Source: Clostridia bacterium (GTDB lineage: Bacteria > Bacillota > Clostridia > Oscillospirales > CAG-272). Taken from it: a stretch of 64,000 bases of DNA. Location of the stretch: the NCBI GenBank assembly GCA_017456905.1, contig JAFTIL010000017.1, forward strand, positions 18,313-82,312. Direction: 5' to 3'. Positions 33,051 through 55,000 of the stretch are shown piece after piece. Both the position numbers and the translations under genes were made by a program. Under the pieces are notes generated by a model, which worked only from the letters and a program-made list of their open reading frames with translations, was not told the DNA's origin and ran no database searches. Positions within the stretch are counted from its first letter, which is position 1. The number at the start of each line of letters is the position of its first letter.

Positions 33051-33202
33051 GATAAACCTCGAGAAAAAACATATATTCCATTATATTATAGCACACTTCG
33101 GTGAATTTGTATAGGGGGTTGGAGAAAATTTTGAAATTTGTTCGTTTAGATTTGACCAACAACAATTTGTCGTTCCTGCTCCACAATTTTCTTCCCCACC
33201 TA

Positions 33203-33231
33203 TTGACAAAATCCTCCGTTGTAGGTATAAT
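33203..33231 (+). promoter_or_regulatory. consensus sigma-A promoter of the GH2 gene
   Basis: TTGACA-17 bp-TATAAT. Confidence 0.8.
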
Positions 33232-33277
33232 AAGAACTGGTAATTTACCCCAAAATATCAAAAGAGAGGTTACAGAT

Positions 33278-34999
33278 ATGAGCCACAACATCCCCCGTCC
33301 CGAATACCCCCGCCCTCAATTCGTGAGAGATCAATGGATCAACCTCAACGGCGCCTGGGAATACCAGACTGACCGCGGTATGAGCGGCGATCAAAGAGGC
33401 TATCAGAACGGCGCTGTATTCACCGAGACCATCACTGTCCCCTTCTGCCGTGAAAGCGAGCTTTCAGGAATCAACGATAAGGATTTCTGCGATTGCGTCT
33501 GGTACCGCAAGAAGCTGACTTTGCCCGAGGGCTGGCAGAACGGCCGCCGCACCATTCTTCATATCGGTGCCTGCGACTATATTACCCATGTCTGGGTCAA
33601 CGGTAAGTTTATCGGCGACCATATCGGTGGTTACGTGGCTTTTTCCTTTGATATTACTGAGGCTTTGGTCGAAGGCGAGAACGCCATCACCATCCGTGCC
33701 ATCGACCACACCCGCACGGGAGATCAGCCCGTGGGCAAGCAGTGTCAGCAATATCATTCTGCAGGCTGCTCCTACACCCGTACCACGGGTATCTGGCAGA
33801 CCGTGTGGCTGGAGAACGTGGCCAATGATTATATCGCAAGCACCAAGTACTATCCCGATATTGACAACAAGAAGCTGGTCATCGAGGCTCATGTAGTGGG
33901 CGGCGAGGGCATGACTCTGTCTGCCGACGCCTCCTTCGTGGGCGTTCCTCAGGGCCACGGCGAGGCTATTGTCCACGGCGGCAAGGCGACCCTTGAAATT
34001 CCCTTGGAGGAACTGTATCTGTGGGAAACCGGGAAGGGAAGACTCTATGATCTGACCCTGACTCTCGGTGAGGATCGCGTGGCTTCTTACTTTGGTATGC
34101 GCCGTGTGGAAGCCCGTGACGGTATCCTTTACATCAACCATAAACCCGTGTTTCAACGCCTGATCCTTGACCAGGGCTTCTATCCCGACGGTATTTACAC
34201 CGCCTCCTGTGAGGGCGAGCTGATTGCTGATATCGACCGCTCCATGGCTATGGGCTTTAACGGCGCACGTCTCCACCAGAAGGTCTTTGAGCCCCGCTTC
34301 CTCTACTGGTGCGACGTGAAGGGCTATATCGTTTGGGGTGAGCACGCAAACTGGGGCCTGGATATTTCCCGCCAGACCGCTTACGAGAACTTCCTCCCCG
34401 AGTGGTGTGAGATCATGGCACGCGACTTCAACCATCCCGCCATTGTCGGTTGGTGCCCTCTGAATGAGACCCAGCCCAACCAGAATCCCCGCTTTGTACG
34501 TCTGCTGGCTACCATTACCCGCCAGTACGATAACACCCGTGCCTACATTGATTCCTCGGGATGGGTGCATATCAAGGGCGTGACCGATATCATGGATATC
34601 CATGACTACGAGCAGAACCCCGAGGTCTTTGCCAAGAAGCTGGCCCCCCTGGCAGAGGGCGGCACTTATGACGTTCATTGGCACTGCCCCTCTATGTCTA
34701 TGCCCGAGCATCCCACCTTCGTGTCCGAGTACGGCGGCATCCGTTGGGCATCCAAGGAAGACGCGGGCTGGGGCTACGGCGTAGCGCCTATGTCCGAGGA
34801 AGAATTCCTGAACCGCTTCAAGGGGCTCACCGAGGCCATCCTGTTCCATCCTGCCATGGGCGGTCTTTGCTACACCCAGCTCACCGACGTTGAGCAGGAG
34901 GTCAACGGCCTTTATACTTATGAAAGACAGGCCAAGTTCGACCCCGAATTTTTCCGCAACGTATTGGAGCAGCCTGCTGCTATCGAAAAAGAAAATTGA
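33278..34999 (+). CDS. glycoside hydrolase family 2
   Basis: PRPEYPRPQF, GIWQTVWLE, LDQGFYPDG, NE and SEYGG catalytic motifs, YTQLTDVEQEVNG. Confidence 0.92.
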   Translation: MSHNIPRPEYPRPQFVRDQWINLNGAWEYQTDRGMSGDQRGYQNGAVFTETITVPFCRESELSGINDKDFCDCVWYRKKLTLPEGWQNGRRTILHIGACDYITHVWVNGKFIGDHIGGYVAFSFDITEALVEGENAITIRAIDHTRTGDQPVGKQCQQYHSAGCSYTRTTGIWQTVWLENVANDYIASTKYYPDIDNKKLVIEAHVVGGEGMTLSADASFVGVPQGHGEAIVHGGKATLEIPLEELYLWETGKGRLYDLTLTLGEDRVASYFGMRRVEARDGILYINHKPVFQRLILDQGFYPDGIYTASCEGELIADIDRSMAMGFNGARLHQKVFEPRFLYWCDVKGYIVWGEHANWGLDISRQTAYENFLPEWCEIMARDFNHPAIVGWCPLNETQPNQNPRFVRLLATITRQYDNTRAYIDSSGWVHIKGVTDIMDIHDYEQNPEVFAKKLAPLAEGGTYDVHWHCPSMSMPEHPTFVSEYGGIRWASKEDAGWGYGVAPMSEEEFLNRFKGLTEAILFHPAMGGLCYTQLTDVEQEVNGLYTYERQAKFDPEFFRNVLEQPAAIEKEN

Positions 35000-35143: not shown

Positions 35144-35172
35144 TTTACAATTTGGAAAGATTGTGCTATAAT
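35144..35172 (+). promoter_or_regulatory. sigma-A promoter
   Basis: TTTACA-17 bp-TATAAT, extended -10. Confidence 0.7.
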
Positions 35173-35227
35173 AACAATAAGATGACCGCTCAGGGCGATC
35201 ACAATTATCCTAAAAGGAGAGAAAACT

Positions 35228-36865
35228 ATGAAAAAAGTGCTTGCACTGATCATTGCCGCTATGATGATCGTTTCCATGATCCCCGTAATGGCAATCACCT
35301 CTTCCGCCGCTGACGTAGACGGCGATTGGATCACCTATCGTTTTTCCGATGGCTACAAGGAGCCCGAACCCGGCGAGGAGCCTTCCTATACCCCTGCCCC
35401 CGGCTTCGAGTATAACGATGAGGGCTTCCACATGACCTCCGCTGACTACACGGGTATCACCCCCTCCGGTACCATCCAGTCCAAGGACAAGGTGAACATC
35501 AAGGACGGCGTTTACATGGAGCTGCGTATCGACCAGTATCCCTACGGCGGCGAAAAAGGTGTCGACCACTGGATCTGCTTCAGCATCATGGACAGCCAGA
35601 AGGTCCATCCCGGTAACACCACGGATGGCTACGGCCAGGGCTGGCAGAGCCTTTGCCGCACCCCCGGCAACGGCGGTGCAGGTCCTCTGCAGAGCTTTGT
35701 CGTCGGTGAAGGCACGGCAGGCTGGATGCAACAGACCCCCGACCTTTCCGTCGCTCCTGCGACGGACGAGAACGGCAAGGAGATCTATACCTTTGAGATC
35801 GCTTACGACGGTTCTAACTACACCATTTCTATCGGCGGTGTTGTTGTCAGCGGTTGTGAAAACATCACCAAGCACCTCAACTCGCTGAATCCCAACGGCG
35901 AGTTCTACATCGGCGTGTCCTTCCACGCAGCTGTTGCCGATGCTCCCATGGAGGCTACCATGCTGAAGTTCGGTACCTCTAAGGAAACTGCCGAGAAGCC
36001 CGTCGGCTCCGACTCCGCGCTGCCTGAGGAGAACATCAACGTAAAGGCTCCCATCGCTGATTCCAGCAAGATCGAGACCAATATGCCTTGCCTGCTGTTC
36101 GACGCCACCGGTACCTCCTATGCCGGCGAGGTTCCCGTTTCCGGTTTGGATATGTCCGCTCAGGGCGATAACTCTTTCAAGGTTGCGCCCGCAGTTACTT
36201 CCGGCTACTTTACCTGGAACATCAGAAACTCCCTCTCTTACGAAGCATCCGATTTCCCTGTCATCGGTTTCTTCATGCACGACCCCAATGAGATCCTCTC
36301 TGCCACGGAAATTTACTATTGCGCAGGCGAAAATATGTCCGCAGGCGCCAATGTTCTGATGAGCTACTCTATTTATGATGAGGCTAACAAGCACTGGGGC
36401 GAAAATGAAGAGTACACCTTCGTGGTCATCGATATGAAGGAAATGCTGGGTGAGGAAGGCTTTGCTGAGGGTTGGTCCGGCCGTATCAACAACCTGCGCT
36501 TTGACTTCAGAGAGTTGTATCTCAACGAGCCCGTTGATCCCGAGACCGACTACTTTACCTTCCACTATGCAGGTATCTTCCGCTCCGTAGAGGAAGCTTA
36601 CGCTTACCAGGATGCTTACGCTGAGAAGCTCAACCTGGGCGAGGCTGCGACCGAGGAGCCCACCGAGGAGCCCACCGATGCTCCCACCGATGCTCCCACC
36701 GAGGAAGCTACCGATGCTCCTACCGGCGAGGCCGGCACCAAGACCGAGGACAAGACCGACGCTTCCAACACCGGTGACGGTGAGGGCTGCGCTTCCGTTG
36801 TCGGCTCTGTGGCCGTTCTGATGGCTGCTGCCGTTGCCGCTGTCGCTCTCAAGAAGAGAGACTGA
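35228..36865 (+). CDS. secreted acidic surface protein with PT linker and Gly-Cys C-terminal anchor (paralog A)
   Basis: Sec signal peptide (..TSSA/A), TEEP/TDAP repeats, tail GCASVVGSVAVLMAAAVAAVALKKRD; strongly biased codon usage. Confidence 0.85.
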   Translation: MKKVLALIIAAMMIVSMIPVMAITSSAADVDGDWITYRFSDGYKEPEPGEEPSYTPAPGFEYNDEGFHMTSADYTGITPSGTIQSKDKVNIKDGVYMELRIDQYPYGGEKGVDHWICFSIMDSQKVHPGNTTDGYGQGWQSLCRTPGNGGAGPLQSFVVGEGTAGWMQQTPDLSVAPATDENGKEIYTFEIAYDGSNYTISIGGVVVSGCENITKHLNSLNPNGEFYIGVSFHAAVADAPMEATMLKFGTSKETAEKPVGSDSALPEENINVKAPIADSSKIETNMPCLLFDATGTSYAGEVPVSGLDMSAQGDNSFKVAPAVTSGYFTWNIRNSLSYEASDFPVIGFFMHDPNEILSATEIYYCAGENMSAGANVLMSYSIYDEANKHWGENEEYTFVVIDMKEMLGEEGFAEGWSGRINNLRFDFRELYLNEPVDPETDYFTFHYAGIFRSVEEAYAYQDAYAEKLNLGEAATEEPTEEPTDAPTDAPTEEATDAPTGEAGTKTEDKTDASNTGDGEGCASVVGSVAVLMAAAVAAVALKKRD

Positions 36866-36875
36866 TTTTAAATCT

Positions 36876-36906
36876 AAGCTCCTCCGCTTTGGCGGGGGAG
36901 CTTTTC
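36876..36906 (+). terminator. intrinsic terminator
   Basis: AAGCTCCTCCGC/GCGGGGGAGCTT plus T tail. Confidence 0.75.
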
Positions 36907-36998
36907 TGCTGATGCGTGTAAGTGAACATTCCTTGTTCTCTGAAAAAGGTTGTGCAACAAGACCATATTTCACCCGAATATTTGTTCATTTTGCACGA

Positions 36999-37027
36999 TT
37001 TACATTTCAAGAAATCTGTGGTATAAT
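36999..37027 (+). promoter_or_regulatory. sigma-A promoter
   Basis: TTTACA-17 bp-TATAAT, extended -10; same architecture as the paralog A promoter. Confidence 0.7.
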
Positions 37028-37093
37028 TAACCCACGAATGACCATCGAAAGGTGGTCATGATTTTCCCAAAAACAAAAAAGGAGAGAAACACC

Positions 37094-38749
37094 ATGAAAA
37101 AAGTGCTTGCACTGATCATTGCCGCTATGATGATCGTTTCTATGATCCCCGTAATGGCAATCACTACTTCGGCTGCTGACGTGGAAGGCGACTTTATGAC
37201 CTACCGCTTCGCAGGCGGCTACGACGAGCCTGAAGAGGACGAGGAGCCTTCCTACATCCCCGCTTCCGGCTACGAGTACACCGCTGATGGTTTCCAGACC
37301 ATCCCCCCCAGCTTTAAGAACACTAACCCCAACCTCTGCATCCAGACCAAGGATAAGGTTTCCCTTAAGGATGGCGTATACATGGATCTTCGTATCGATG
37401 AGTACGCTTACCGTGGCACCGACGGAACCGCCGATGCTTGGATCGCCTTCTCTATCTGGGATAGCCAGACCCTTTCTCCCGGTTCTCTGAACTACGGTCA
37501 GGGTTGGCTCTGCCTGCTCCGCCGTCCTCAGGGTGTTGCTGACACCCAGCCCGGTCATGCTGCTACCGTTGAGAGCTATATCTCCAGCGATAAGGCCTTT
37601 GCTCACCAGGGTGGCGTTTTCACCCCTGTAACTCCTACTGTTGACGACGCAGGCTTTGAGCACAACACCCTCCAGGTGACCTACGACGGCACCAACTACC
37701 ACATCCTGGTTGACGGTGCTGAGGTTGCCGGCTCCGAGGCTATCACCGCTCACTTCAACAACCTGGATCCCAACGGCGAGTTCTACATCGGCGTTTCCAT
37801 CCAGTCCGGTGTGTTTGAGAGCAACATCAAGACCACCATTACCAAGTGGGGTACTGATCCCGAGAGTGCTGAGACTCCTACCGGTTCCGACTCTGAGGTT
37901 CCTGAGGAGAACATCCTGTGGGTAGCCGATATGATGGACTCCTCTACTGTTGAAGAGGGTCAGCCCGCTCTGCTGTTTGATGCAGAGGGCAAGTACTACA
38001 GCGGTAAGCTGGGTACCATGAACCTGGATCTCGAGCCTCAGGGCGACAATTCCTTCAAGGTAAATGCTTCCAGCCACGTTGGTTATTTCACTTGGGGTAT
38101 TAAGCGCGACTATTCCTATGAGGCCGCTGATTTCCCTGTTATCGCTATGCTCGTTAAGGATGAGCACGCGCTCTTTGATACCGGTGTTCTGCGTTACTCC
38201 GCAGGTAAGTATCAGAGTGCTGATGATACTCATATGCTCACCTACACCTACTGGGATGAGGATTGCCTCTACTTCGGTGAGGATGAGGAGTACACCCTGA
38301 TCGTTATCGACCTGAAGACGCTTCTTGACGAGGCCGCCTTTGCTGATGGCTGGTCCGGTCGTATCAACTCCTTCCGTTTCGACTTCAACGCTCTGGACGT
38401 TGATGAAACTAACGTTGATCCCGAGACCGACTACTTCAACCTGCACTGGGCAGGCGTGTTCCGCTCCGTGGAAGACGCTCAGAACTACGGTACTACCTAC
38501 ATGAAGGAAAAGCTCAACCTCGAGCAGAGCACCGAGAGTCCCACCGAGGAGCCCACTGACGCTCCCACCGAGGAACCCACCGACGCTCCCACCGAGGAAG
38601 CTACCAAGGCTCCCGAGGCCGGCACTAAGACTGAGGACAAGACCGACGCTCCCGACACTCAGGAGTCCGGTTGCGCTTCCGTTGTCGGTTCCGTTGCAGT
38701 TCTGATGGCTGCCGCTGCTGCCGCTGTCGTTCTGAAGAAGAGAGACTAA
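37094..38749 (+). CDS. secreted acidic surface protein with PT linker and Gly-Cys C-terminal anchor (paralog B)
   Basis: Near-identical signal peptide to paralog A; tail GCASVVGSVAVLMAAAAAAVVLKKRD. Confidence 0.85.
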   Translation: MKKVLALIIAAMMIVSMIPVMAITTSAADVEGDFMTYRFAGGYDEPEEDEEPSYIPASGYEYTADGFQTIPPSFKNTNPNLCIQTKDKVSLKDGVYMDLRIDEYAYRGTDGTADAWIAFSIWDSQTLSPGSLNYGQGWLCLLRRPQGVADTQPGHAATVESYISSDKAFAHQGGVFTPVTPTVDDAGFEHNTLQVTYDGTNYHILVDGAEVAGSEAITAHFNNLDPNGEFYIGVSIQSGVFESNIKTTITKWGTDPESAETPTGSDSEVPEENILWVADMMDSSTVEEGQPALLFDAEGKYYSGKLGTMNLDLEPQGDNSFKVNASSHVGYFTWGIKRDYSYEAADFPVIAMLVKDEHALFDTGVLRYSAGKYQSADDTHMLTYTYWDEDCLYFGEDEEYTLIVIDLKTLLDEAAFADGWSGRINSFRFDFNALDVDETNVDPETDYFNLHWAGVFRSVEDAQNYGTTYMKEKLNLEQSTESPTEEPTDAPTEEPTDAPTEEATKAPEAGTKTEDKTDAPDTQESGCASVVGSVAVLMAAAAAAVVLKKRD

Positions 38750-38780: not shown

Positions 38781-38810
38781 ACCCCCGATGCTGCGGCATC
38801 GGGGGTTTTT
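38781..38810 (+). terminator. intrinsic terminator
   Basis: ACCCCCGATGC/GCATCGGGGGT plus T run. Confidence 0.8.
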
Positions 38811-38929: not shown

Positions 38930-39709
38930 ATGCTTCGTTTAATCTACGTCATCATCATGCGGATCGGATCTATCATGTACTTCGTTCCCAAGATGAGAAA
39001 ATATGCCCGCCACCCCGAGATCTATACCGAGGAGGACTGTCATGAGTTGGCCAAGGTCATGATCCGCAAGGTGGCTAAAACTGCCCGTATCACGACGAAA
39101 GTCTACGATGCGGAAAACCTGCCCTCCGAGGGCGGCTTCGTGCTGTTCTCCAATCACCAAAGCAAATTCGATGCCTTGGGGATCATGGAGGCCTTGCCCC
39201 GACCCTGTCGTGTCCTGATGGATTTGAAACGTTCAAAAATGCCGCTGGCCAACGAATACGTGGCTCTTGTCAGAGGAAAACGCCTGGACAAAAGCAACAT
39301 TCGCCAGCAGGTCACCTGCTTCCGCGAGATCTCCGAGGAGGTGGCAGATGGCAAGGTATATCTTGTCTTCCCCGAGGGCGGTTACGTCAAGGGGCAGACC
39401 AATCGCATGGGCGTGTTTCACGGCGGCTGCTTCCGTACGGCCGTGCGTGCCAAGGCTCCCATTGTCCCCGTGGCACTGGTTGATCTCTACAAGACCTTTG
39501 GGCGCAATTCTCTCCGAAAGGTGTCCTGTCAGGTTTATTTTCTGCCCGCTATCCCTTACGAGGAGTATCAGCATATGACGAGTGCTGCGCTGGCTGGGCG
39601 GGTACAGGCTGATATCGCACAAAAGATCCGGGAGGTCACGGGGGAGGACGTCATGCCTGCTTCGAGCGACACGGGCGTCAACCTGCAGAATATTTCTATG
39701 GGAGCATGA
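38930..39709 (+). CDS. plsC: 1-acyl-sn-glycerol-3-phosphate acyltransferase
   Basis: NHQSKFD and FPEG motifs, APIVPV. Confidence 0.85.
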   Translation: MLRLIYVIIMRIGSIMYFVPKMRKYARHPEIYTEEDCHELAKVMIRKVAKTARITTKVYDAENLPSEGGFVLFSNHQSKFDALGIMEALPRPCRVLMDLKRSKMPLANEYVALVRGKRLDKSNIRQQVTCFREISEEVADGKVYLVFPEGGYVKGQTNRMGVFHGGCFRTAVRAKAPIVPVALVDLYKTFGRNSLRKVSCQVYFLPAIPYEEYQHMTSAALAGRVQADIAQKIREVTGEDVMPASSDTGVNLQNISMGA

Positions 39710-40358: not shown

Positions 40359-40529
40359 AAATAATAAAAGTTTGTCGGCTTTTTCAATGATCCGCTTTTT
40401 GCGGTCATGTGATGACACAAAATGAGATCGTGTGACAAAATACACCAAAAAGAGACAGACAAAATTACAATTGTGCTTCCGACCGAGGGGAGATCCCTTC
40501 GGCATCGAAAACGAAAGAAGGTGAGATCC

Positions 40530-40850
40530 TTGTCAAAAGAAGCCATGATGCGTATCCGCGAGGCTGAAGCAGAGGCAAAGGCCATGAAAGAGGCCGCCGA
40601 GCAGGAGGCCGCCGCACGGATCGAGCAAAATGAAAAGGCCTTAGCCGCCGAAGAGGAAAAGGCGGTCAGCGCCGCTGATGAAGCCCTCAAGGCTAAGCTG
40701 GCCTCTGTGAGAAAGAGAGCGGACGAGCTCATCGAGCAGAGCCGCAAGGAGGCCGCTGAGGACGTAACAGCCATGGAGACCGAGGCTCGCGCGCATATGC
40801 GTGAAGCCGTTAAGCTCATCGTATGGGAGATGTTTGATCAATGTCAATAA
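40530..40850 (+). CDS. ntpF: V/A-type ATPase stator subunit G/H (NtpF-like)
   Basis: Glu/Ala/Lys coiled coil IREAEAEAKAM; TTG start after GAAGGTGA; first gene of the operon. Confidence 0.75.
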   Translation: MSKEAMMRIREAEAEAKAMKEAAEQEAAARIEQNEKALAAEEEKAVSAADEALKAKLASVRKRADELIEQSRKEAAEDVTAMETEARAHMREAVKLIVWEMFDQCQ

Positions 40851-42871
40851 GTACAATGAAACGGTTGACCGTGTTGACCCCCAAGGTGGATGCGGATGCC
40901 CTCATTCGTCGCCTCATGAAGCTGAAATGCGTAGAGATCAGTACCTCTTCATTAGACGAGGGCGGCGATCTTTACCGCAACGATTGCGACACCGCCCGAG
41001 TCGAGGCGGAGAAGCGGGTGGCGAATATTGCCGAGGCAATTCCCATTTTGGATAAATACACGGTTGGAAAATCCCCCTGGAGGGACAAGCCCATCAATAC
41101 CAGCACGGGGCTGTTCCGTAAAACGGGAAGCTACCACGCCGCCTGGGCGGTGGTAGACGAAGTGCTGGAGATCCGTGATACTATGACGGAATGTTATCAC
41201 GAGGACAACCGTATGGCGGCGCGCATCGCCATGCTGTGTCCCTGGCTTGAATACGATCTGCCCCTGGAGATCAATGCAACGGATGCCGCATATCTGTGGC
41301 TGGGAACCTTCCCGTCTGCCGTCCGCATTGAATCTGTGCAGGCAGCGCTTTCGGATCTGAATGCGGGGATAGAAGAGGTTTACCGAGATAAGGCAGGCCT
41401 TTATGCTTCTGTTGCTCTTCATCAGGGAGACGAGGAGGCCGTGAACCGTGTTTTAGCGGGCATGGGCTTTGTGAAAGCCAATTTCAAGGACCTCACGGGT
41501 ACGGCCAAGCAGGTTGCCCGCGCGGCTGAGCGTCGAATGGATGCCATTGATAACGAGCTGCAGGCTTGTATCGACCGCCTTTGCGAGCTATCGCCGCTTC
41601 TCGAGGATCTTCAGGTTCTTTACGACGTGGAAATGACCACTCTTACGGCCATCAAGCAGAAACAAAAGCTGGCCGCTACAGAGTCCTGTGTGCTTCTCAC
41701 GGGCTGGATTCCCGTTGAGAAAAGCGAGAAGGTCAAGCATGCTCTGCATCATTTGAATTGCGCATATGATCTGACTGATCCCGCTGAGGATGAGGAGCCG
41801 CCCATTCTGCTCAAGAACAACGGCTATGCCTCCAACTTCGAGTGGGTGGTGGGTATGTATTCCTATCCCAAGTACGGCACGTACGACCCCACCTTTATCA
41901 TGAGTATCTATTACTTCGTGATCTTCGGCCTAATGTTTGCCGACGTAGGCTACGGCTTGCTTCTGATCCTGGGTGCCTTCCTCGGTGTCAAGTTCATGAA
42001 GCTTTCCCCCGGCATGAAGCGGATGTTTACCATGTTTGGCTATTGCGGTATCGCCTGTGTGATCTTGGGCGCCGTGTTCGGCGGCTGGTTTGGCGATCTG
42101 CCCTATGCCATCATGACCACCTATATGGGCTACGAAAGCGCTGAGGCCGCTAAAGCCGCCGCTCCCATCTTCAACGGTGTGACCTTGACCTTGAACGGCG
42201 AGCCCCTGTCCCTTAATCCTCTGGAAAATCCCATTCCCTTCCTGATCATTTCCCTTGCTATGGGTCTCATCCACATCCTGGGCGGTATGGCGGTCAAGTT
42301 TTATCTGCTGTGCAGAGAAGGGAAGATCTTCTCGGCCATCTTTGATATTGGTTCTTATTGGATCCTTTTCGGCGGTATCGGATTGATCTTCGTGGATTCC
42401 ACCGTGGGCCTGGCGGTGACTGTCATGGGTGTGCTCATGATCGTGCTCACCCAGGGACGGGAAAAGAAGAATATCTTCGCCAAGCTTGTCTTTGGTCTCA
42501 AGGGCCTTTACGATCTGATCAGCTACGCCTCCGATCTTCTCTCCTACAGCCGTATTCTGGCGCTGGGTCTGGCGGCGGGCGTTATGGCTCAGGTGTTCAA
42601 CCTCTTGGGTACCTTGGGCGGCCCTACCATCCCCGGCTTCATCCTGTTGATCCTGGTTATGCTGATAGGACACGGTCTGAACATGGCTATCAATATCCTC
42701 GGTGCCTTCGTTCATACCTGCCGTTTGCAATATCTTGAATTTTTCAGCCGATTTTACGAGGACGGCGGTACGCCCTTTGATCCCGCCCTCCCCAGCGAAA
42801 AATATTCCACCGCAGAGTCGGAAAAAACAAAAAATAAAACAAATTCTTATCATAAAGGAGTCATCTCATGA
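40841..42871 (+). CDS. ntpI: V-type ATPase subunit I (a)
   Basis: DPT, FGLMFADVGYG, SYSRILALGLA, HTCRLQYLEFF. Confidence 0.96.
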   Translation: MSISTMKRLTVLTPKVDADALIRRLMKLKCVEISTSSLDEGGDLYRNDCDTARVEAEKRVANIAEAIPILDKYTVGKSPWRDKPINTSTGLFRKTGSYHAAWAVVDEVLEIRDTMTECYHEDNRMAARIAMLCPWLEYDLPLEINATDAAYLWLGTFPSAVRIESVQAALSDLNAGIEEVYRDKAGLYASVALHQGDEEAVNRVLAGMGFVKANFKDLTGTAKQVARAAERRMDAIDNELQACIDRLCELSPLLEDLQVLYDVEMTTLTAIKQKQKLAATESCVLLTGWIPVEKSEKVKHALHHLNCAYDLTDPAEDEEPPILLKNNGYASNFEWVVGMYSYPKYGTYDPTFIMSIYYFVIFGLMFADVGYGLLLILGAFLGVKFMKLSPGMKRMFTMFGYCGIACVILGAVFGGWFGDLPYAIMTTYMGYESAEAAKAAAPIFNGVTLTLNGEPLSLNPLENPIPFLIISLAMGLIHILGGMAVKFYLLCREGKIFSAIFDIGSYWILFGGIGLIFVDSTVGLAVTVMGVLMIVLTQGREKKNIFAKLVFGLKGLYDLISYASDLLSYSRILALGLAAGVMAQVFNLLGTLGGPTIPGFILLILVMLIGHGLNMAINILGAFVHTCRLQYLEFFSRFYEDGGTPFDPALPSEKYSTAESEKTKNKTNSYHKGVIS

Positions 42872-43497
42872 AAATCGCATCTGTAAAGAAATTTTTGGCC
42901 GTTATTCTGTCCGTGTTCGCTATCCTGACCCTGACCGTTGTTGTAGCTTCCGCTACCGACGGCGCTGAAACGCCCGCCAAAAATCCCATCGCTGATATGT
43001 TTTTGGGTCTGTTCTCCGGCACGAACCTTGCCCTTTTGGGTGTGGCGCTGGCTGTTACTCTCCCTTGTATCGGTTCCGCCAAGGCTGTTGGTATCGTTGG
43101 TGAAGCTGCTGACGGTCTGCTCTCCGAGCAGCCCGGTATGTTCGGTAAGGCATTCCCCATGATGGCTCTGCCTATGACCCAGGGTGTATACGGCCTGGTT
43201 GCGTCCTTCCTGATGCTCATGGCCCTCGGCCTTTTCGGTAATCCCGACAACCTCATGAACCTGACCTTTGCACAGGGCGGTTACTTCGTCATGGCTGCTC
43301 TTCCCATCGCCATCGCAGGTTATCTGTCTGCCATCCGTCAGGGCCGCGTAGCTGCCGCAGGTATCAACCTCATCGGCAAGCGCCCCGGTTCTCTGGGTCA
43401 GGCTATCACCACCGCCGCACTGGTGGAGACTTATGCGATCTTCTCCCTGCTCATCACCATCATGCTGGTCTTCCTCTGCCCCTTCTCCGTACTCTGA
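42868..43497 (+). CDS. ntpK: V-type ATPase subunit K (c), 4-TM Na+-type, with N-terminal signal-like extension
   Basis: IGSAKAVG, TQGVYG, RQGRVAAAG, VETYA. Confidence 0.95.
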   Translation: MKIASVKKFLAVILSVFAILTLTVVVASATDGAETPAKNPIADMFLGLFSGTNLALLGVALAVTLPCIGSAKAVGIVGEAADGLLSEQPGMFGKAFPMMALPMTQGVYGLVASFLMLMALGLFGNPDNLMNLTFAQGGYFVMAALPIAIAGYLSAIRQGRVAAAGINLIGKRPGSLGQAITTAALVETYAIFSLLITIMLVFLCPFSVL

Positions 43498-43533
43498 TAC
43501 AAAGGAATTCCAAGGAAGGAAACTTAAAAAGCT

Positions 43534-44202
43534 ATGACCGGAATTGAAAAAGTCACGGGCAAGATCATTGCCGATGCGCGTGAAGAGGCCGACGCCATCC
43601 TTCAAAGGGCTGACGAGACCTGTGCCGCTGTTCGAGCAGAATATTCAGCCCGTATCCAGGCCGAGCGGGACAAGCTGGAGGAGCAGGCCAACCGGGAGTG
43701 TGAGTCTATCATCACCCGTGCCAAATCCTCGGCGGCTATGGCCAAACGCAACGTAGTGCTTGAAAGCCGCGCTGCCCTCATCAGCGAGGCCTACGCTACT
43801 GCCGAAAAGGAGCTTCGCGAGCTCCCTGTGGACGAGTATCTGGATCTACTCGTCAAGATGCTGAGAGGCGCCCTCCTGCGTCAGCTTGAGAGTGAGCGGG
43901 AGAGCTTGGCGCTTTACGGCGAGAATATTACTCCCGATAAATACGAGGTGCTCCTCAACCGCAATGACCGCGATATGTTCGGCACCCGTCTCATGGAGAC
44001 GATCAAGCGCACTCAAGTGGGTAAGATCAGCATGAGCGTGCTGGACCGCGTGGTGTTGTCCAACCAGATCGCTAAGATCGATGGCGGTCTCGTCCTCCGA
44101 TGCGGGGACGTGGAGGCGAATTGCGCGCTCGGTATGATGATGGCGCAGGTGCGCCGCGCTACAGAGGTCAAGGTGAACCAAACGCTGTTCGGCAATACTT
44201 GA
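43534..44202 (+). CDS. ntpE: V-type ATPase subunit E
   Basis: MTGIEKVTGKIIADA coiled coil; IDGGLVL. Confidence 0.9.
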   Translation: MTGIEKVTGKIIADAREEADAILQRADETCAAVRAEYSARIQAERDKLEEQANRECESIITRAKSSAAMAKRNVVLESRAALISEAYATAEKELRELPVDEYLDLLVKMLRGALLRQLESERESLALYGENITPDKYEVLLNRNDRDMFGTRLMETIKRTQVGKISMSVLDRVVLSNQIAKIDGGLVLRCGDVEANCALGMMMAQVRRATEVKVNQTLFGNT

Positions 44203-44248
44203 TCCTCGACCTAATCCGTCCCCTGCGAGGGGACACACGGAGGCATGA

Positions 44249-45292
44249 ATGAAAAAATTACAAGCCACAGAATATACCTATGCCTCTGCCCGTATCCGCG
44301 CCATGGAAAACAGACTGGTGGGCAGAGAGCGTGTGGACGTGCTGGTTGATCTGAAGTCAAGCGAGGACGTGATGGTAAAGCTTTCGGAGTATGGCGTTCT
44401 GTCCGCCGCTGAGGGGGAGGGAAGTGCTCCTGCCTCAGGGGAGACCTTAGGCTATAAGCGAGAGGAGATGCTCACATCTCTCCTTTGTGCCGCCTGCAAT
44501 GAAGTCTACGAGGCTGTGCCCGAGCCCGAATTTTTTGCTTGGTTCCGCTATCCCTACGATTGTAACAATATCAAGACCGTGATCAAATGCCATATCAGAG
44601 GTATCGACCCTATGGATATGCTCTTTGATTTTGGTACGGTATCGGCAGAGGAAACGGTGCGGCTTCTGACAGAAGGAAAGTGCGATGCATTCCCCACGGC
44701 TATGGCCGCAGCCATTGGCGAGGCCAAGGAAGCCTACGCCAAAACCAATGATCCCCAGCAGATCGATGCTATTTTAGATAAGGCCTGTTACGCGGATATG
44801 CTGACCTCGGCCAAAGCATCGGGGAACGAGACCATCCTGGGCTGGATCACCACCAAGATAGATCTCGTCAATATCATGATGTGTTTGCGCATTCTCCGCA
44901 TGAAACGCGGAGAGACGGGCAAGATCTTTATGGATACCTGCCTTCTGGAAGGCGGAGACCTGCCCCTTGCTTTTTTTGACGCGGCCTACGAGGGCGGCGA
45001 AGAAATGCTTTGGAGTGGTCTTTCTTCGAGCCAATACAGCAAGTACAACCGCTTCGTCAGTGCTGTGGAAAGAACGGATAAGTCTCTTTCTGCCATAGAG
45101 CGCTGTGCCGACAACCACTGGATGTTGATCGTCCGTGAGGGTGCCCGTGTGCCCTTTGGCGCAGAGGTGGCAGGCGGTTACCTCGTTGCCTGCGAAGTGG
45201 CGGTGAAGAATATCCGCATCATACTGGCCGCCAAGGACGCAAAGCTGTCCTCCGACGTGCTGAGGGAAAGAATCAGGGATAGCTATGTATAA
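44249..45292 (+). CDS. ntpC: V-type ATPase subunit C (d)
   Basis: YASARIRAMENRL, YDCNNIK, IDLVNI, RERIRDSYV. Confidence 0.92.
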   Translation: MKKLQATEYTYASARIRAMENRLVGRERVDVLVDLKSSEDVMVKLSEYGVLSAAEGEGSAPASGETLGYKREEMLTSLLCAACNEVYEAVPEPEFFAWFRYPYDCNNIKTVIKCHIRGIDPMDMLFDFGTVSAEETVRLLTEGKCDAFPTAMAAAIGEAKEAYAKTNDPQQIDAILDKACYADMLTSAKASGNETILGWITTKIDLVNIMMCLRILRMKRGETGKIFMDTCLLEGGDLPLAFFDAAYEGGEEMLWSGLSSSQYSKYNRFVSAVERTDKSLSAIERCADNHWMLIVREGARVPFGAEVAGGYLVACEVAVKNIRIILAAKDAKLSSDVLRERIRDSYV

Positions 45293-45605
45293 GATTGGTA
45301 TCATTGGCGAGCGCGATAGCGTGCTCGGATTTATGGCCATCGGCTTTTCCGTCCACGAGGCTCCTAATGCCGAAAGCGCCAGAGATATTTTGCATACACT
45401 TGCAAAAGATGACAGCTACGCCATCATCTTTATCGTGGAAAATTATGCGGAGGCGATTGCCGAAGATATTGCCCGTTATAATGACGTTCCCATCCCTGCG
45501 GTGATCACCATCCCGGGACGCGGAGGCTCAACGGGATACGGTATGGCCGCCATCAAGAGTGCCGTGGAACGAGCCGTCGGCGCAGATATTATTTTCAAGG
45601 AGTGA
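45285..45605 (+). CDS. ntpG: V-type ATPase subunit F
   Basis: KIGIIGERDSVLGF, VERAVGADI. Confidence 0.93.
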   Translation: MYKIGIIGERDSVLGFMAIGFSVHEAPNAESARDILHTLAKDDSYAIIFIVENYAEAIAEDIARYNDVPIPAVITIPGRGGSTGYGMAAIKSAVERAVGADIIFKE

Positions 45606-45617
45606 GGAGCAACTACA

Positions 45618-47387
45618 ATGGTAGAAGGAAAGATTTTAAAGGTATCCGGCCCTCTGGTCATTGCCGAGGGTATGAGAAATGCCAATATGTTTGACGTGGT
45701 GCGTGTCGGTGAAAACCGTTTGATCGGTGAGATCATCGAAATGCACGGTGACCGCGCCTCTATCGAGGTCTACGAGGAAACTGCAGGCCTTGGCCGCGGC
45801 GATAAGGTGGTGTCTACGGGTGCCCCTCTATCCGTGGAGCTTGGCCCCGGTCTGATCACCTCCATTTACGACGGCATCCAGCGCCCGCTGGAAGCCATGA
45901 GAATCAAATATGGCTCCAACATCCAGAAGGGTATCGACGAGGCCGCGCTGGACAGAGACAAGCGCTGGAGATTCGAGCCCGCGCTTTCGGTGGGTGACAC
46001 CGTCAGCGGCGGCGACGTGTACGGTACCGTGCAGGAGACCGAGATCATTACCCACAAGATCATGTGCCCTCCTAAGAAGAAGGGTACCATCGTGGAGCTG
46101 ATCCCCGGTGAATACCGTGTCACCGATCGTATTGGCCGTATCCGTCTTGATGACGGTACTCTGGAGGATATCACCCTCATGCAGAAATGGCCCGTCCGCG
46201 TGGCCCGTCCCTATGCCGAAAAGCTGCCTCCCGTGGAGCCTATGATCACGGGTCAGCGTCCCATCGACGCCCTGTTCCCCATCGCCAAGGGCGGTACTGC
46301 TTGCGTCCCCGGCCCCTTCGGCTCGGGTAAGACCGTGGTGCAGCACCAGCTTGCTAAATGGAGTGACGTGGATCTGGTGGTCTACATCGGTTGTGGCGAG
46401 CGCGGTAACGAGATGACAGACGTTCTCCGTGAGTTTCCCGAGCTGACCGACCCTCGTACGGGCAAGTCCCTCATGGAGCGTACCGTGTTGATCGCCAACA
46501 CCTCGGATATGCCCGTGGCCGCTCGTGAGGCGTCTATCTATACGGGTATCACCATTGCCGAATATTTCCGTGATATGGGTTATTCGGTGGCTGTTATCGC
46601 TGACTCTACCTCCCGTTGGGCTGAGGCGCTCCGCAAAATGTCGGGCCGTCTTGAAGAAATGCCCGGTGAGGAAGGTTATCCTGCATACCTTACCTCTCGT
46701 TTGGCTCAGTTCTACGAGCGTGCGGGTAAGGTGGTCTGCATCGGTTCCGATAAGCGCGAGGGCGCTCTGTCTGCCATTGGTGCCGTATCTCCCCAGGGCG
46801 GTGATATCTCCGAGCCTGTGACCCAGGCGACTCTGCGTATCGTTAAGGTCTTCTGGGGTCTGGACGCATCTTTGGCTTACCGCCGTCATTTCCCCGCCAT
46901 CAACTGGCTCAATTCCTATTCTCTCTATCGTGACCGCCTGGACGGCTGGTTCGGTGAGCACGTGTCACGCAAGTGGACCGAATATACGGGCCGTTGCCTC
47001 AAGACTCTCCAGCTTGAATCCAATCTGGACGAGATCGTCAAATTGGTTGGTATGGACGCTCTCTCCTCTGAAGATAGACTTATCATGGAGTCCGCCCGTT
47101 CTATCCGTGAGGACTTCCTCCAGCAGAACGCCTTTGAGGACGAGGACTGCTACACAGCCCTGGACAAGCAGTACGCCATGATGGATCTGGTGTTCTTCTT
47201 TGAGGACAAGGCCAAGGCCGCCGTCGCCGAGGGCGTGGATGTGGAGGATATCTCCAACCTGCCCGTTCGTGAGCGCATCGGCCGTTTCAAGGCTGTACCC
47301 TATGCTTCCTACCAGGCCGAGCTGGCATCTGTGAAAGAGCAGATCAACGCAGAACTGGGTCAGCTCATTTCTGCTGTGCGCGCCTGA
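45618..47387 (+). CDS. ntpA: V-type ATPase catalytic subunit A
   Basis: P-loop [25 protein letters not shown]. Confidence 0.97.
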
Positions 47388-52091: not shown

Positions 52092-55000
52092 ATGCAATTA
52101 TTGATACATAGACGGAAAACTCGCAGCGGAGCATCCGTTTCGCTGAAAAATCATATAGCACGTTGGGTGCTTTTGACGCTTTCTCTCGCTTTGAGCATCA
52201 CCTGCTTTTTGAACCCTGTCGCAGCAGAGACAAGGGATGAAACGCTGTCTTACTATTTTACAGATCCCGAGGGTACTGATACCGTCATGCCGCAAGGTGA
52301 GGTGGTGGCGGGACTGTTAGGCGGTATTCCCGCTTCAGAGATTGATTATCTGAACAACCATAGCCGATACGTTTTGTATACTGCCGCCATCCCCCGCGAC
52401 AAGACCTACGCTCACGTGAGCGGTGACGGCGTGTTGGTGTTGGCGTACGACTATGTCTATACCACAACTGATGGCATTACCGTCATGTGGATGCCCTTGC
52501 TTGCCGAGAATACCGAAACGGGCGAAATCACGGATATGAGTTATGATTCTGATCTGGAACTGTACCGCGGTTATCTGGCAGGCGAGGAAGACCAGTCCAT
52601 CAAGGTCTATTTTGCCGCGTCCTTCACGCTTTCCGAGGATGTTGCCTTGGAGATGGTCAACGAGGCTCACAAGGCCGCCGTATCGCTGATGGCTGCCATG
52701 GAGTTCTATGAAACTGCGTTGGGATTGTGGACGCCCCAAAAAGAAGCGTATGATGCTTATCTTTCGGCGTACGATGCGTGGGTGACGGCTACCAAAGCCT
52801 ACGAAGACTATTTGAAAGAGAAGGCTGTGTATGACGCATGGTGGGAGGATCACGACGCGAAGGAAGCCGCCATGAATGCCTATCTGGAGCAGAAGGCTGC
52901 CTATGAGGCGTGGACAAAATATCAAAGTGATCTGGAAGCCTACGAGGCTTATATGGCATTGGTCAACGCCAGTCCTGAATTGAAGGCACAGTATGAAGCG
53001 GATATGGCGATCGTGCTGTCACAGCTCGCCGTCATGGATCGGATGTTTATCAAGTCGCATATTTCGGGCTATAGCTTTGAGGGCGTTCTTAACAGTGGAG
53101 CCGTTGATTATATTTTGAATAACAAGGATGAGCTTTTGAACGTACCCGATATCCAAAACAAGGAGGATGTCTATACGTCGGTGGATGCTACAAGGGCTCT
53201 CCGCAAGCTGGTCGATGCTTATAAGGCTCTTACAAGCAGAGAAGAGCAATACGAATTCTATATTGCCAATCGTGACGAGATGACCACTTGGATGAAGGCG
53301 CTGTACCGTAGCATGGTCGCACTTGGCGAGGTGGAATTCGTATACGATACCCTCCAAAGCAAAGGCGCTTTAGACACGTATTTACAATTCCTTGGCAATC
53401 TTTACGTCCAGGGATGGCTCATGGACGATGCTGCGACGTTGGATATAGATACGGCTATTTTCGGCAGAAATCTGACCGAATTAGTGGAGTCTGAACTGAT
53501 CCTTGAGGATAAAAACCAAATGGCTCCGTTGGAGGCTTATCCCCATCCGCCCCAAACCTCCGATGACGTGCCGGAGGTACCCTATCCCGGCGATCCCCCT
53601 GCTGAAGCGGAACATCCGGGTGAGATGCCCGATGAAGTGCCTGACACCTATTATGCGCCCGATCTGCCCGCTGAGATCTCCCCTGCAGGTGATGCTCCCG
53701 AGGTTGTGGAGGATCCCGGAGAGGCTCCCTCCGCACCCGAGATGACGGAAGCCGAAAAGGGATTGTATGATGCTTATGTGGCGGGGGAGATCACCGCACG
53801 CGATGCTGATGCGCTTCCTGAGGGTGGTACCTTTTCCACCCTCATGAGTGGTGAGACCCGGGTAGTTTCTGGTAAGACTGTCAAGATCAACTTCTATACC
53901 CACGCAGGAGATCTGATCTCCGGCAAGCGTCTGATCTTTGGCTCGTCTTTGCTTGACAACCAAAATGTGAAACTGCCGAAGGTCTATGCTGAAAACGGTG
54001 CGCTCTTGACCTTTGTGGGCTGGTCTCTAACCCCCATGCCGCTTCCTCAATCGGTGGAGGATGTATACCCTGTCCTGGAAACTACCGAAGTTGTCAAGGA
54101 GCTTTCCCTGTATCCCGTATATCGCCTGTATCATACGTCTGCCAACAAGGCTACTTGCACAGAGGCAGAGGTCTGTAAATATTGTAATGCCGTGCTGACC
54201 CCTGCTTTAGGTCATACTGAAGAAGAGATCCCGGCCGTTGCACCCACCTGTACTGAAACGGGTCTGACCGCAGGAGTTAAGTGCTCCGTTTGCAAAGAGA
54301 TCTTGATCGCCCAGGAAGAGGTTGCGGCTAAGGGCCACACCCCCGGCGACGAGGCCACCTGTACCACCGCTCAGATCTGTACCGAATGTACTGCCGTGGT
54401 GAAACCGGCTATGGGACACGAATGGGACGAAGGCAAGATTACCACGGAGCCCGGCTGTGAGACAGATGGTGAAAGGACATATACTTGTCGGCATGACGAA
54501 ACCCATACGCGCACCGAACCTGTGCCTGCCTTCGGTCATACTGAAGCCGAGGCAATCGAAGAGAACAGAATAGAGGCCAAGTGTGAAGAAGACGGCTCTT
54601 ATGATAGTGTTGTTTATTGTTCTGACTGTTCCAAGGAATTGCGCCGAAAAGTCCAAACCATCCCCGCGCTGGGACACGAATGGGACGAGGGCACGATGAC
54701 CACGAAGCCCAGCTGTGAGACACAAGGCGAAAAGACCTACACCTGTCAGCATGATGAAACTCATACTTACACCGAGCCTGTCGATCCCGTCGGTCATACT
54801 GAAGCCGAGGCAATCGAAGAGAACAGAATAGAGGCCAAGTGTGAAGAAGACGGCTCTTATGATAGTGTTGTTTATTGTTCCGATTGTTCCAAGGAATTGC
54901 GCCGAGAAGTCCAAACCATCCCCGCGCCGGGACACGAATGGGACGAGGGCGAAGTGACCACAGCACCTACTTGTACCGAGTCCGGTATCAGAACACACGG

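Follow-up and report, generated by a model that had tools for sequence, protein, structure and literature searches.

The closest described counterpart of the C-terminal signal analysed here is MYXO-CTERM (TIGR03901; TIGR03382, GC_trans_RRR), a tripartite tail with an invariant cysteine after a glycine. It is found in Myxococcota on dozens of unrelated clients per genome and is paired with MrtX, a housekeeping protease of the CPBP/Rce1 kind in which EExxxR and HxxxN-type motifs are found. In the published model the cysteine receives a lipid before the tail is cleaved, and cleavage by MrtX requires this cysteine; the acyl-transferase is unidentified, and Lgt, the leading candidate, is a guess (PMC11980579). 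Three other signals, Synerg-CTERM (TIGR04564, with MrtS), JDVT-CTERM (NF033191, with MrtJ) and CGP-CTERM (TIGR04288, with MrtA), also place an invariant cysteine directly before the helix, and their cognate CPBP proteases were found by neighbourhood and profile. The system described below shares the layout of the tail, the many unrelated clients and the cognate CPBP protease, with lipidation before cleavage proposed here as well, and its linker resembles the Thr/Ser-rich one of CGP-CTERM. It can also be compared with LPXTG/sortase A, which has the same order of signal peptide, linker, motif, helix and basic end, and with the Lgt and LspA pathway, where a cysteine at the outer face adjoins a helix that is afterwards cut off.

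The window, i.e., the whole stretch of 64,000 nucleotides of a Clostridia genome that was analysed, contains ORFs for two secreted paralogues with 55% identity, both on the forward strand. Protein 1 (545 aa, 35228..36865) has a signal-like N-terminus, and the gene of protein 2 (551 aa, 37094..38749) starts with an ATG preceded by an AGGAGA site. The initial annotation had pointed to a shared ending made of Gly-Cys-Ala-Ser, a helix and KKRD, and had placed it correctly: the tail of protein 1, with an Ala/Val helix and the stop, spans 36785..36865 (cysteine codon at 36788-36790) and that of protein 2 spans 38669..38749 (cysteine codon at 38672-38674), both on the forward strand. The PT-rich spacer that it described is also present, as a Pro/Thr/Glu/Ala/Asp-rich linker in protein 1 (36641..36784, forward strand, borders approximate) and a PT-rich linker in protein 2 (38522..38668, forward strand, borders approximate), with a weak Pfam PT match under the cut-off. 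It had stated that LPXTG and SLH motifs are lacking, and neither model matched the two proteins.

The predicted structure of protein 1 (mean pLDDT 85.4, below 50 in the tail region) comprises two putative beta-sandwiches, which we compared with the PDB by VIA-align search. The first (around residues 30-251) is L-type lectin-like and best matches the lectin region of the adhesin SraP, another likeness to LPXTG/sortase A (Z 12.2, rmsd 3.7, 182 aligned); the second (around residues 284-465) is CBM-like and matches CBM29 (Z 10.8, rmsd 3.1, 142 aligned). A PDB sequence search with the family gave no match, and its Atlas matches are unnamed or low-share leads. Upstream of gene 1 there is a promoter-like site, TTTACA-17-TATAAT with TG (35144..35172, forward strand), and a site with the same two hexamers lies upstream of gene 2 (36999..37027, forward strand); both are consensus matches only. 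Since gene 2 has its own promoter-like site, the two genes are probably transcribed separately. A terminator-like hairpin follows gene 2 (38781..38806, forward strand). We considered the PlsC-type acyltransferase gene beyond it (38930-39709) as a linked gene and rejected it, because the hairpin lies between them and no homologue occurs in any fetched locus.

On sequence evidence, the G-C-x-[SA] motif, helix and Lys-rich end make up a C-terminal signal that secreted proteins carry throughout the genome, beyond what chance would give. We made an HMM of the tail from 31 distinct seed tails and searched the 11,016 ORFs of at least 60 aa in the genome with it. There were matches in 39 ORFs, of which 37 are distinct, with scores from 17.4 bits upwards and always at most 7 residues from the stop; the next-best match (10.9 bits) was internal. 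The signal is thus not confined to the paralogue pair from which it was proposed: the 37 distinct proteins form 20 homology clusters of mutually unrelated families (35 of 666 pairs are homologous), and the cysteine is present in all 37, an invariance that is partly circular because 33 of the 39 matches are seeds picked for Gly-Cys. A search blind to the cysteine (linker, helix and basic end) added, besides two duplicates, only two proteins without it. Among the 120 homologues listed for the window protein, the cysteine is kept in 117 of the 117 with a complete C-terminus, twice without the glycine. Signal-like N-termini, called by a simple charge and hydropathy rule rather than SignalP, occur in 34 of the 37 tail proteins, and the three without one are ORFs that run off the end of a contig. 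The tail therefore shows these attributes from Haft's list for sorting signals: it is C-terminal, multi-copy and tripartite, with a signal-like N-terminus and clients that are mostly non-homologous.

In 96 non-redundant tails, the glycine is present in 92, the cysteine in 96 and Ser or Ala at +2 in 82; the cysteine, single as a rule, precedes the basic cluster by 20-26 aa, and the end has 265 Lys to 77 Arg. C-[GAS]-[SA] occurs in 72% of these tails and in 15% of in-helix control windows. Tail helices are 30% Ala. A strict mirror lipobox was rejected, since it fits 29 of 96 tails against 12.6% of control windows and is a partial match only; L, V or I stands at +3 in 37 of 96.

No existing CTERM model covers the window's tails, as the initial annotation had supposed: the score was 10.4 bits for Synerg-CTERM (cut-off 22.5) and 18.9 for GVDTG-CTERM (cut-off 29), and the window tails passed no NCBIfam cut-off. 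By E-value, TIGR03382 matched 4 of 58 tails, those of the window not among them (best E 0.015), and TIGR03901 was absent from the 25 of 36 families listed for the tails. Whereas MYXO-CTERM has an Arg-rich end and frequently a second cysteine, the tail is Lys-rich, with a shorter helix. It differs from Synerg-CTERM (best E of 58 tails 0.001) by the absence of a proline, which there lies in a Leu-rich helix, and from JDVT-CTERM and CGP-CTERM by the absence of the Asp-Pro and Cys-Gly-Pro motifs. In contrast with LPXTG/sortase A, there is no LPXTG-like motif, and the 120 homologues listed for one client include none with LPXTG or SLH. Sortase, rhomboid and exosortase were rejected as processing enzymes because none was found in the genome (94.7% complete).

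The CPBP protease whose co-occurrence had been suggested was found outside the window, together with a coupled Lgt paralogue that had not been foreseen. On contig C15 of the same genome, lgt2 (54742-55605), which encodes a second, divergent Lgt, lies directly behind a tail gene and shares an ATGA overlap with cpbp2 (55602-56462), which encodes an Rce1-type CPBP protease. The genome also encodes a canonical Lgt, accompanied by LspA and about 100 lipobox-like ORFs. The other CPBP matches of the genome (7 in all) were rejected as candidates, none having an Lgt neighbour in its ORF list. CPBP2 scores 60.4 bits against PF02517 (cut-off 22.4), the family of CPBP/Rce1-like glutamic intramembrane proteases, and its motifs EExxxR, H and HxxxD/N are kept in 81 of 81 sequences. 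Against the myxosortase models it stays below the cut-offs: it scores 20.8 bits on Mrt_core (NF040914, cut-off 100; the best E among 23 members is 1.9e-5), 18.1 on MrtS (NF040589, cut-off 130) and 21.5 on MrtJ (cut-off 75), and the MrtA model gave no match to it. CPBP2 may have been separately recruited, because its MrtS and MrtJ scores are lower than those of a generic CPBP that the genome also encodes.

Lgt2 scores 108 bits against PF01790 (cut-off 24.9) and 72.9 against the canonical equivalog TIGR00544, under the cut-off of 118.9, and its fold matches PDB 5AZB (E 2e-11). The published Lgt motif has 13 residues, of which 68 of 68 sequences keep 10, and the departures are H103Y/L/F, N146C and E151C. 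Against a role of Lgt2, N146 is essential in the E. coli enzyme, and low activity is presumed for a mycobacterial homologue with N146C. The comparison with the Lgt and LspA pathway is therefore one of shared fold and most motif residues, with these substitutions in Lgt2, the helix after the cysteine instead of before it, a reversed lipobox that is only partial, and a CPBP that would stand in for LspA.

The coupling is conserved across genomes. Each of 30 Lgt2 loci taken from relatives has the CPBP2 gene directly downstream, and an lgt lies directly upstream in 67 of 80 GTDB CPBP2 loci, with an overlap of at most 20 nt in 33 of them. A single branch sets the coupled Lgts apart from the others (19/19, SH-aLRT 98; both Lgt trees are quick trees). 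A fusion of Lgt2 and CPBP2 was not upheld, because the one apparent case spans a stretch of N and none of the 80 GTDB loci is fused. The gene directly upstream of lgt2 can be a tail gene, from four families without homology to one another, and at three loci the pair is flanked by tail genes on either side; four tail families among 11 upstream-gene families give a rough binomial P of 1.5e-5 at a base rate of 1.5%. A tail gene is at most 5 kb away in only 18 of 80 CPBP2 loci, and the commonest gene upstream of the pair (33 of 80 loci) is one that we take to be ftsK-like.

Among 61 relatives, 32 have multi-copy tails, and 31 of these have both Lgt2 and CPBP2, a combination that does not occur in the remaining 29; in G018 (88% complete) there are 33 tails, yet neither protein was found. 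Kinship confounds much of this profile, because an unrelated CPBP from the genome under study was likewise found only in tail-positive relatives (21 of 61), in an imperfect control that sets a single protein, one of the genome's other CPBPs, against a profile. In a class sample of 399 genomes, four others have CPBP2 at E <1e-50; they belong to three other families, and inspection showed Cys tails in every one, whereas the matches inspected in four weak-scoring genomes are sortase-type or plain tails without the cysteine. Weak tail matches in five genomes were set aside, those inspected being of EETG- or PQTGD-type or plain helices; four more genomes have a single weak match each. Among 36 additional genomes in which the pair is coupled, 34 have a tail match and two have none, as do 5 of 12 genomes with uncoupled CPBP2. 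Overall, the presence of CPBP2 follows that of the tail more closely than Lgt2 does. The proposed restriction to Clostridia stands as far as we searched, other classes being covered solely by a whole-GTDB pattern scan with the protease: the 80 kept matches have Clostridia-type record titles, unlike the Myxococcota of MYXO-CTERM, and one of them is from Erysipelotrichaceae.

Because the tail travels with a protease gene that is usually joined to an Lgt gene, we infer that it is likely lipidated and clipped as an anchor. In the reading that we favour (with a probability of about 0.62), the tail cysteine would be lipidated by the Cys-Cys-type Lgt2, the helix cut by CPBP2 and the protein retained at the surface by its lipid. 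After Sec export, the helix would act as a stop-transfer sequence, with the Lys cluster inside and the cysteine at the outer membrane face. Lgt2 or, in genomes that lack it, a related Lgt of the Cys-Cys type would then attach a diacylglyceryl to the cysteine by a thioether, and CPBP2 would cleave just after the lipidated residue, by analogy with Rce1 and MrtX. The protein would be held in the outer leaflet by the lipid alone. Clostridia have a single membrane, so that no T2SS step is expected, unlike in the hosts of MYXO-CTERM. The processing of the tail by CPBP2 is very probable, lipidation by some Lgt-family enzyme is probable, and lipidation by the coupled Lgt2, where present, is a little less so. 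The tail system would thereby work like MYXO-CTERM and its myxosortase, with a coupled Lgt paralogue where the myxobacterial acyl-transferase is unidentified.

The strongest alternative, although improbable, is that CPBP2 is the dedicated component and that any Lgt at hand, canonical or of a generic Cys-Cys type, or another acyltransferase lipidates the tail, the coupled Lgt2 being an accessory that raises capacity. It agrees with the closer tracking of the tail by CPBP2 and with six genomes that have both without the coupled Lgt clade: G193 (94% complete, 18 tails) has only a canonical and a distant Cys-Cys-type Lgt, and G475 (21 tail matches), G498, G503, G266 and G429 are similar. Further in its favour, MrtX processes its substrate in E. 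coli, without its cognate partner there (PMC11980579). Against a dedicated Lgt, Cys-Cys-type second Lgts also occur in ten genomes without a tail match. Yet lgt2 stays coupled in most CPBP2 loci, as one clade, and the exceptional genomes are drafts, each with some Cys-Cys-type Lgt. It is still less probable that the tail is an uncleaved membrane anchor, its cysteine perhaps acylated or in a disulfide, and that the gene pair acts elsewhere, e.g., on N-terminal lipoproteins. The abundance of lipobox-like ORFs and the contribution of kinship to the co-occurrence would fit, as would one client family in which, among 120 homologues listed, 110 have the Gly-Cys tail and four a plain helix. However, the tail helices are weakly hydrophobic, with a median of -0.68 against -1.7 to -5.8 in the four motif-less homologues (a small sample), four unrelated tail families directly precede the pair, and the co-occurrence extends to other families. 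A precedent for this alternative is LnsB, a CPBP-like protein with a part in lipoprotein N-acylation in Staphylococcus (PMC7387801), but it lacks the CPBP catalytic motifs that all CPBP2 sequences keep. Finally, it is very unlikely that CPBP2 cuts without a lipid (for release or hand-over to the cell wall or S-layer) or lipidates by itself in one step, since this, although lipid-independent cleavage or a dual-function protease is not excluded by PMC11980579 and N146 is lost in Lgt2, leaves unexplained both the coupling to an Lgt whose remaining motif residues do not vary and an invariant cysteine with small neighbours.

Lipidation by Lgt2 and cleavage by CPBP2 would also fit a wider view, which we hold slightly more probable than its contrary: a mirror-image lipoprotein pathway, in which a dedicated Lgt clade acts on a C-terminal cysteine with a reversed helix, an Rce1-type protease replaces LspA, and dozens of clients per genome, enzymes and lectins, are anchored at the surface mainly by this route instead of by sortase, with Cys-Cys-type Lgts as the missing lipidating enzymes. 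If so, myxosortase-like sorting would extend to a single-membrane bacterium, Lgt-family activity to a reversed helix, and some second Lgts would acquire a role. The proteins would be lipoproteins of a so far unrecognised class, with the lipid at the C-terminus, and such lipids might be recognised by TLR2. For uncultured gut Clostridia, up to 60 surface proteins in each genome would have their annotation corrected. Because the Lgt and CPBP are coupled and have substrates of their own, the question of the lipidating enzyme becomes directly testable, and the pair would supply a candidate for the one still missing in related systems.

The tail, a Gly-Cys-x-[SA] motif followed by a hydrophobic helix and a Lys-rich end at the protein C-terminus, is a real Cys-type sorting signal. 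On the window DNA, the two tandem genes (35228-36865 and 37094-38749, plus strand) and both tails were found at the places indicated in the initial annotation. The tail extends well beyond this pair: a pattern scan and an HMM built on 31 distinct seeds found it in 39 of the 11,016 ORFs of the genome (37 distinct proteins), never more than 7 residues away from the stop and with a score gap from 17.4 to 10.9 bits. The Cys is invariant in the 37 distinct tails, 35 of which have Gly before it. These clients sort into 20 clusters, so the Cys, which the initial annotation had placed at the core of an undescribed signal, is conserved in the tails of unrelated proteins. Because the seeds had been picked for Gly-Cys, we also made a Cys-blind search of the genome, which added just two linker-helix-basic proteins. 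Among the 120 listed of 152 homologues of the window protein, all 117 with a complete C-terminus keep the Cys. Two homologues (P0030, P0033) keep it with the preceding Gly changed to Glu or Arg, behind an acidic linker.

A simple rule assigned a signal-like N-terminus to 34 of the 37 clients. Pfam domains beyond the PT repeat occur in 16 of the 35 scanned, and comprise GH2, GH92, glycerophosphodiesterase, amidase, CHAP, NAGPA, carbohydrate-binding and Ig-like domains. One CHAP-domain client (L027, C27:3093-5138) combines a lipobox-like N-terminus (simple rule) with the Cys tail and may therefore be anchored at both ends. Identical tail genes are duplicated between contigs (C19/C109 and C30/C123), in line with the 8.8% contamination of the assembly or a duplicated assembly.

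As a sorting signal, the tail is apparently uncatalogued. The initial annotation knew of no named equivalent. For the window's tails, every NCBIfam model stayed below its cut-off. When 58 tails were aligned and compared, the top matches among the 25 of 36 families listed had E-values of 1e-4 to 1e-2 and were to assorted helix-plus-basic models (GVDTG, NPXTG, Synerg-CTERM, GC_trans_RRR); Pfam gave weak LPXTG-anchor matches only. We found neither this tail nor a coupled lgt-CPBP pair described in the literature, mainly that outside subscription journals. The main text of Haft (10.1101/2023.06.07.544157), whose supplements could list more, contains no mention of Firmicutes, Clostridi-, Bacillota or Lgt.

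Which enzymes could process the tail? In this assembly (94.7% complete) sortase, rhomboid and exosortase gave no match, and the inventory comprises seven Rce1-like matches, one LspA and two Lgts. The second, divergent Lgt (lgt2, C15:54742-55605) lies 3' of a tail gene and overlaps by ATGA the gene of a CPBP protease (cpbp2, C15:55602-56462). When Lgt2 residues were mapped via E. coli Lgt onto the 13-residue motif of 10.1101/2025.03.27.645668, 10 positions were unchanged in 68 coupled Lgts, i.e., those encoded directly upstream of CPBP2; H103 is replaced by Y, L or F, and Cys stands at both N146 and E151. Since the E. coli enzyme depends on N146 as an essential residue, this exchange counts against a dedicated Lgt. 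The catalytic motifs are all intact in 81 CPBP2 sequences. CPBP2 is a strong candidate for the tail protease and Lgt2 a good, but not obligatory, candidate for the lipidating enzyme.

The gene order is largely conserved. The CPBP2 gene directly follows lgt2 in all 30 Lgt2 loci taken from relatives. We then analysed the best 80 of 131 CPBP2 relatives in GTDB; by their titles, all come from assembled genomes of bacteria of Clostridia type (one labelled Erysipelotrichaceae), and many from animal gut samples. An lgt lies directly upstream in 67 of these 80 loci, another one, next to a contig edge, is likewise coupled, and 12 are uncoupled, several of them labelled Christensenellaceae. A tail gene lies within 5 kb in 18 of the 80. 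Those directly upstream of the pair represent four families without mutual homology (13 GTDB loci and our genome; 4 loci; L213; G033), and three loci have tail genes on both sides. In L167, L172 and L180, the pair sits between two large paralogous tail-protein genes (about 1,200-1,500 aa). Neither lgt nor a tail gene was present at eleven further CPBP loci, for which the flanks were shorter.

Tail and enzymes co-occur across genomes. At least two tails are present in 32 of 61 relatives, 31 of which carry both genes (the exception is G018), and the remaining 29 have neither at orthologue level. This profile is weak by itself, because most of the sample belongs to a single genus and another, unrelated CPBP is likewise confined to tail-bearing genomes. 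In a class-wide sample of about 400 genomes, CPBP2 was found at E < 1e-50 in four others, with 15-20 tails in two and 1-2 in two, all real on inspection. Six more had weak tail matches, lacking the Cys in the four inspected; scoring was limited to 19 candidates for the tail and 6 for the proteins per genome, so misses are possible. Among 48 of the 80 GTDB genomes (excluding the closest 30, one duplicate and one already counted), tail matches occur in 34 of the 36 that carry the coupled pair and in 7 of the 12 in which CPBP2 is uncoupled. The control genomes without CPBP2 gave no tail match (12) or weak non-Cys matches only (5). The top match has the Cys in all 30 genomes inspected.

In a quick, midpoint-rooted tree, all 19 coupled Lgts included group on the same side of a branch (SH-aLRT 98), within a broader Cys-Cys-type subfamily. 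Two results speak against a dedicated Lgt. Six genomes (G193, G475, G498, G503, G266, G429) have tails and CPBP2 with a second Lgt outside the coupled clade, and ten genomes without a tail match encode Cys-Cys-type Lgts, so CPBP2 is the better marker of the tail. Lgt2 is usual in tail genomes and a candidate, though not an obligatory, partner. An uncoupled sister clade of Cys-Cys-type Lgts comprises L124, L127, L139-L143 and L286. In L124 and L127, from genomes without a tail match, the Lgt precedes a gene pair that we take to be chromate-transporter-like.

Small residues follow the Cys: C-[GAS]-[SA] occurs in 72% of 96 non-redundant tails versus 15% of control windows from the same helices. 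Compared with the reversed lipobox consensus, these tails are alike at two positions and not at the third. The helices contain 30% Ala and are weaker than motif-less anchors (n=8 versus n=4), weak evidence for what would be expected if the helix is later removed. We propose that the protein would be exported, with the helix acting as a stop-transfer; Lgt2 would lipidate the Cys, CPBP2 would cut after it, and the protein would stay by its lipid. The same lipidation-then-cleavage scheme was proposed for MYXO-CTERM, where, according to PMC11980579, cleavage by the myxosortase MrtX is demonstrated and the acyl-transferase unidentified. The tail system works alike, yet belongs to neither the MYXO-CTERM nor the myxosortase family: it is a new variant alongside them. 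Other tails were seen in tandem arrays of surface-protein genes in G139 and G166 (L264, L265, L269, L270, L273, L274), where EETG/EPTG directly precedes an Ala/Val helix and KK[KR]EF; they would be short sortase-type tails without spacer.

The two window proteins are 55% identical, and two more tailed paralogues occur in the genome (C7:85764-87347 and C2:40332-41885). AlphaFold predicts for the first protein (mean pLDDT 85.4) two beta-sandwich domains, which resemble the L-type lectin regions seen in surface adhesins (for SraP, Z 12.2 and rmsd 3.7 with 182 aligned) and CBM29 (Z 10.8 and rmsd 3.1 with 142 aligned). Given these matches, the window pair are likely glycan-binding surface proteins, fold likeness alone proving no function. 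Directly upstream on the same strand lies a GH2 glycoside hydrolase (33101-34999). Long minus-strand ORFs opposite both paralogues (35210-36973, 587 aa; 37007-38446, 479 aa) probably result from codon bias. From 40422-47387 onward follows what we take, by eye, to be a V/A-type ATP synthase-like operon, with subunit I-, K-, E-, C-, F- and A-like ORFs.
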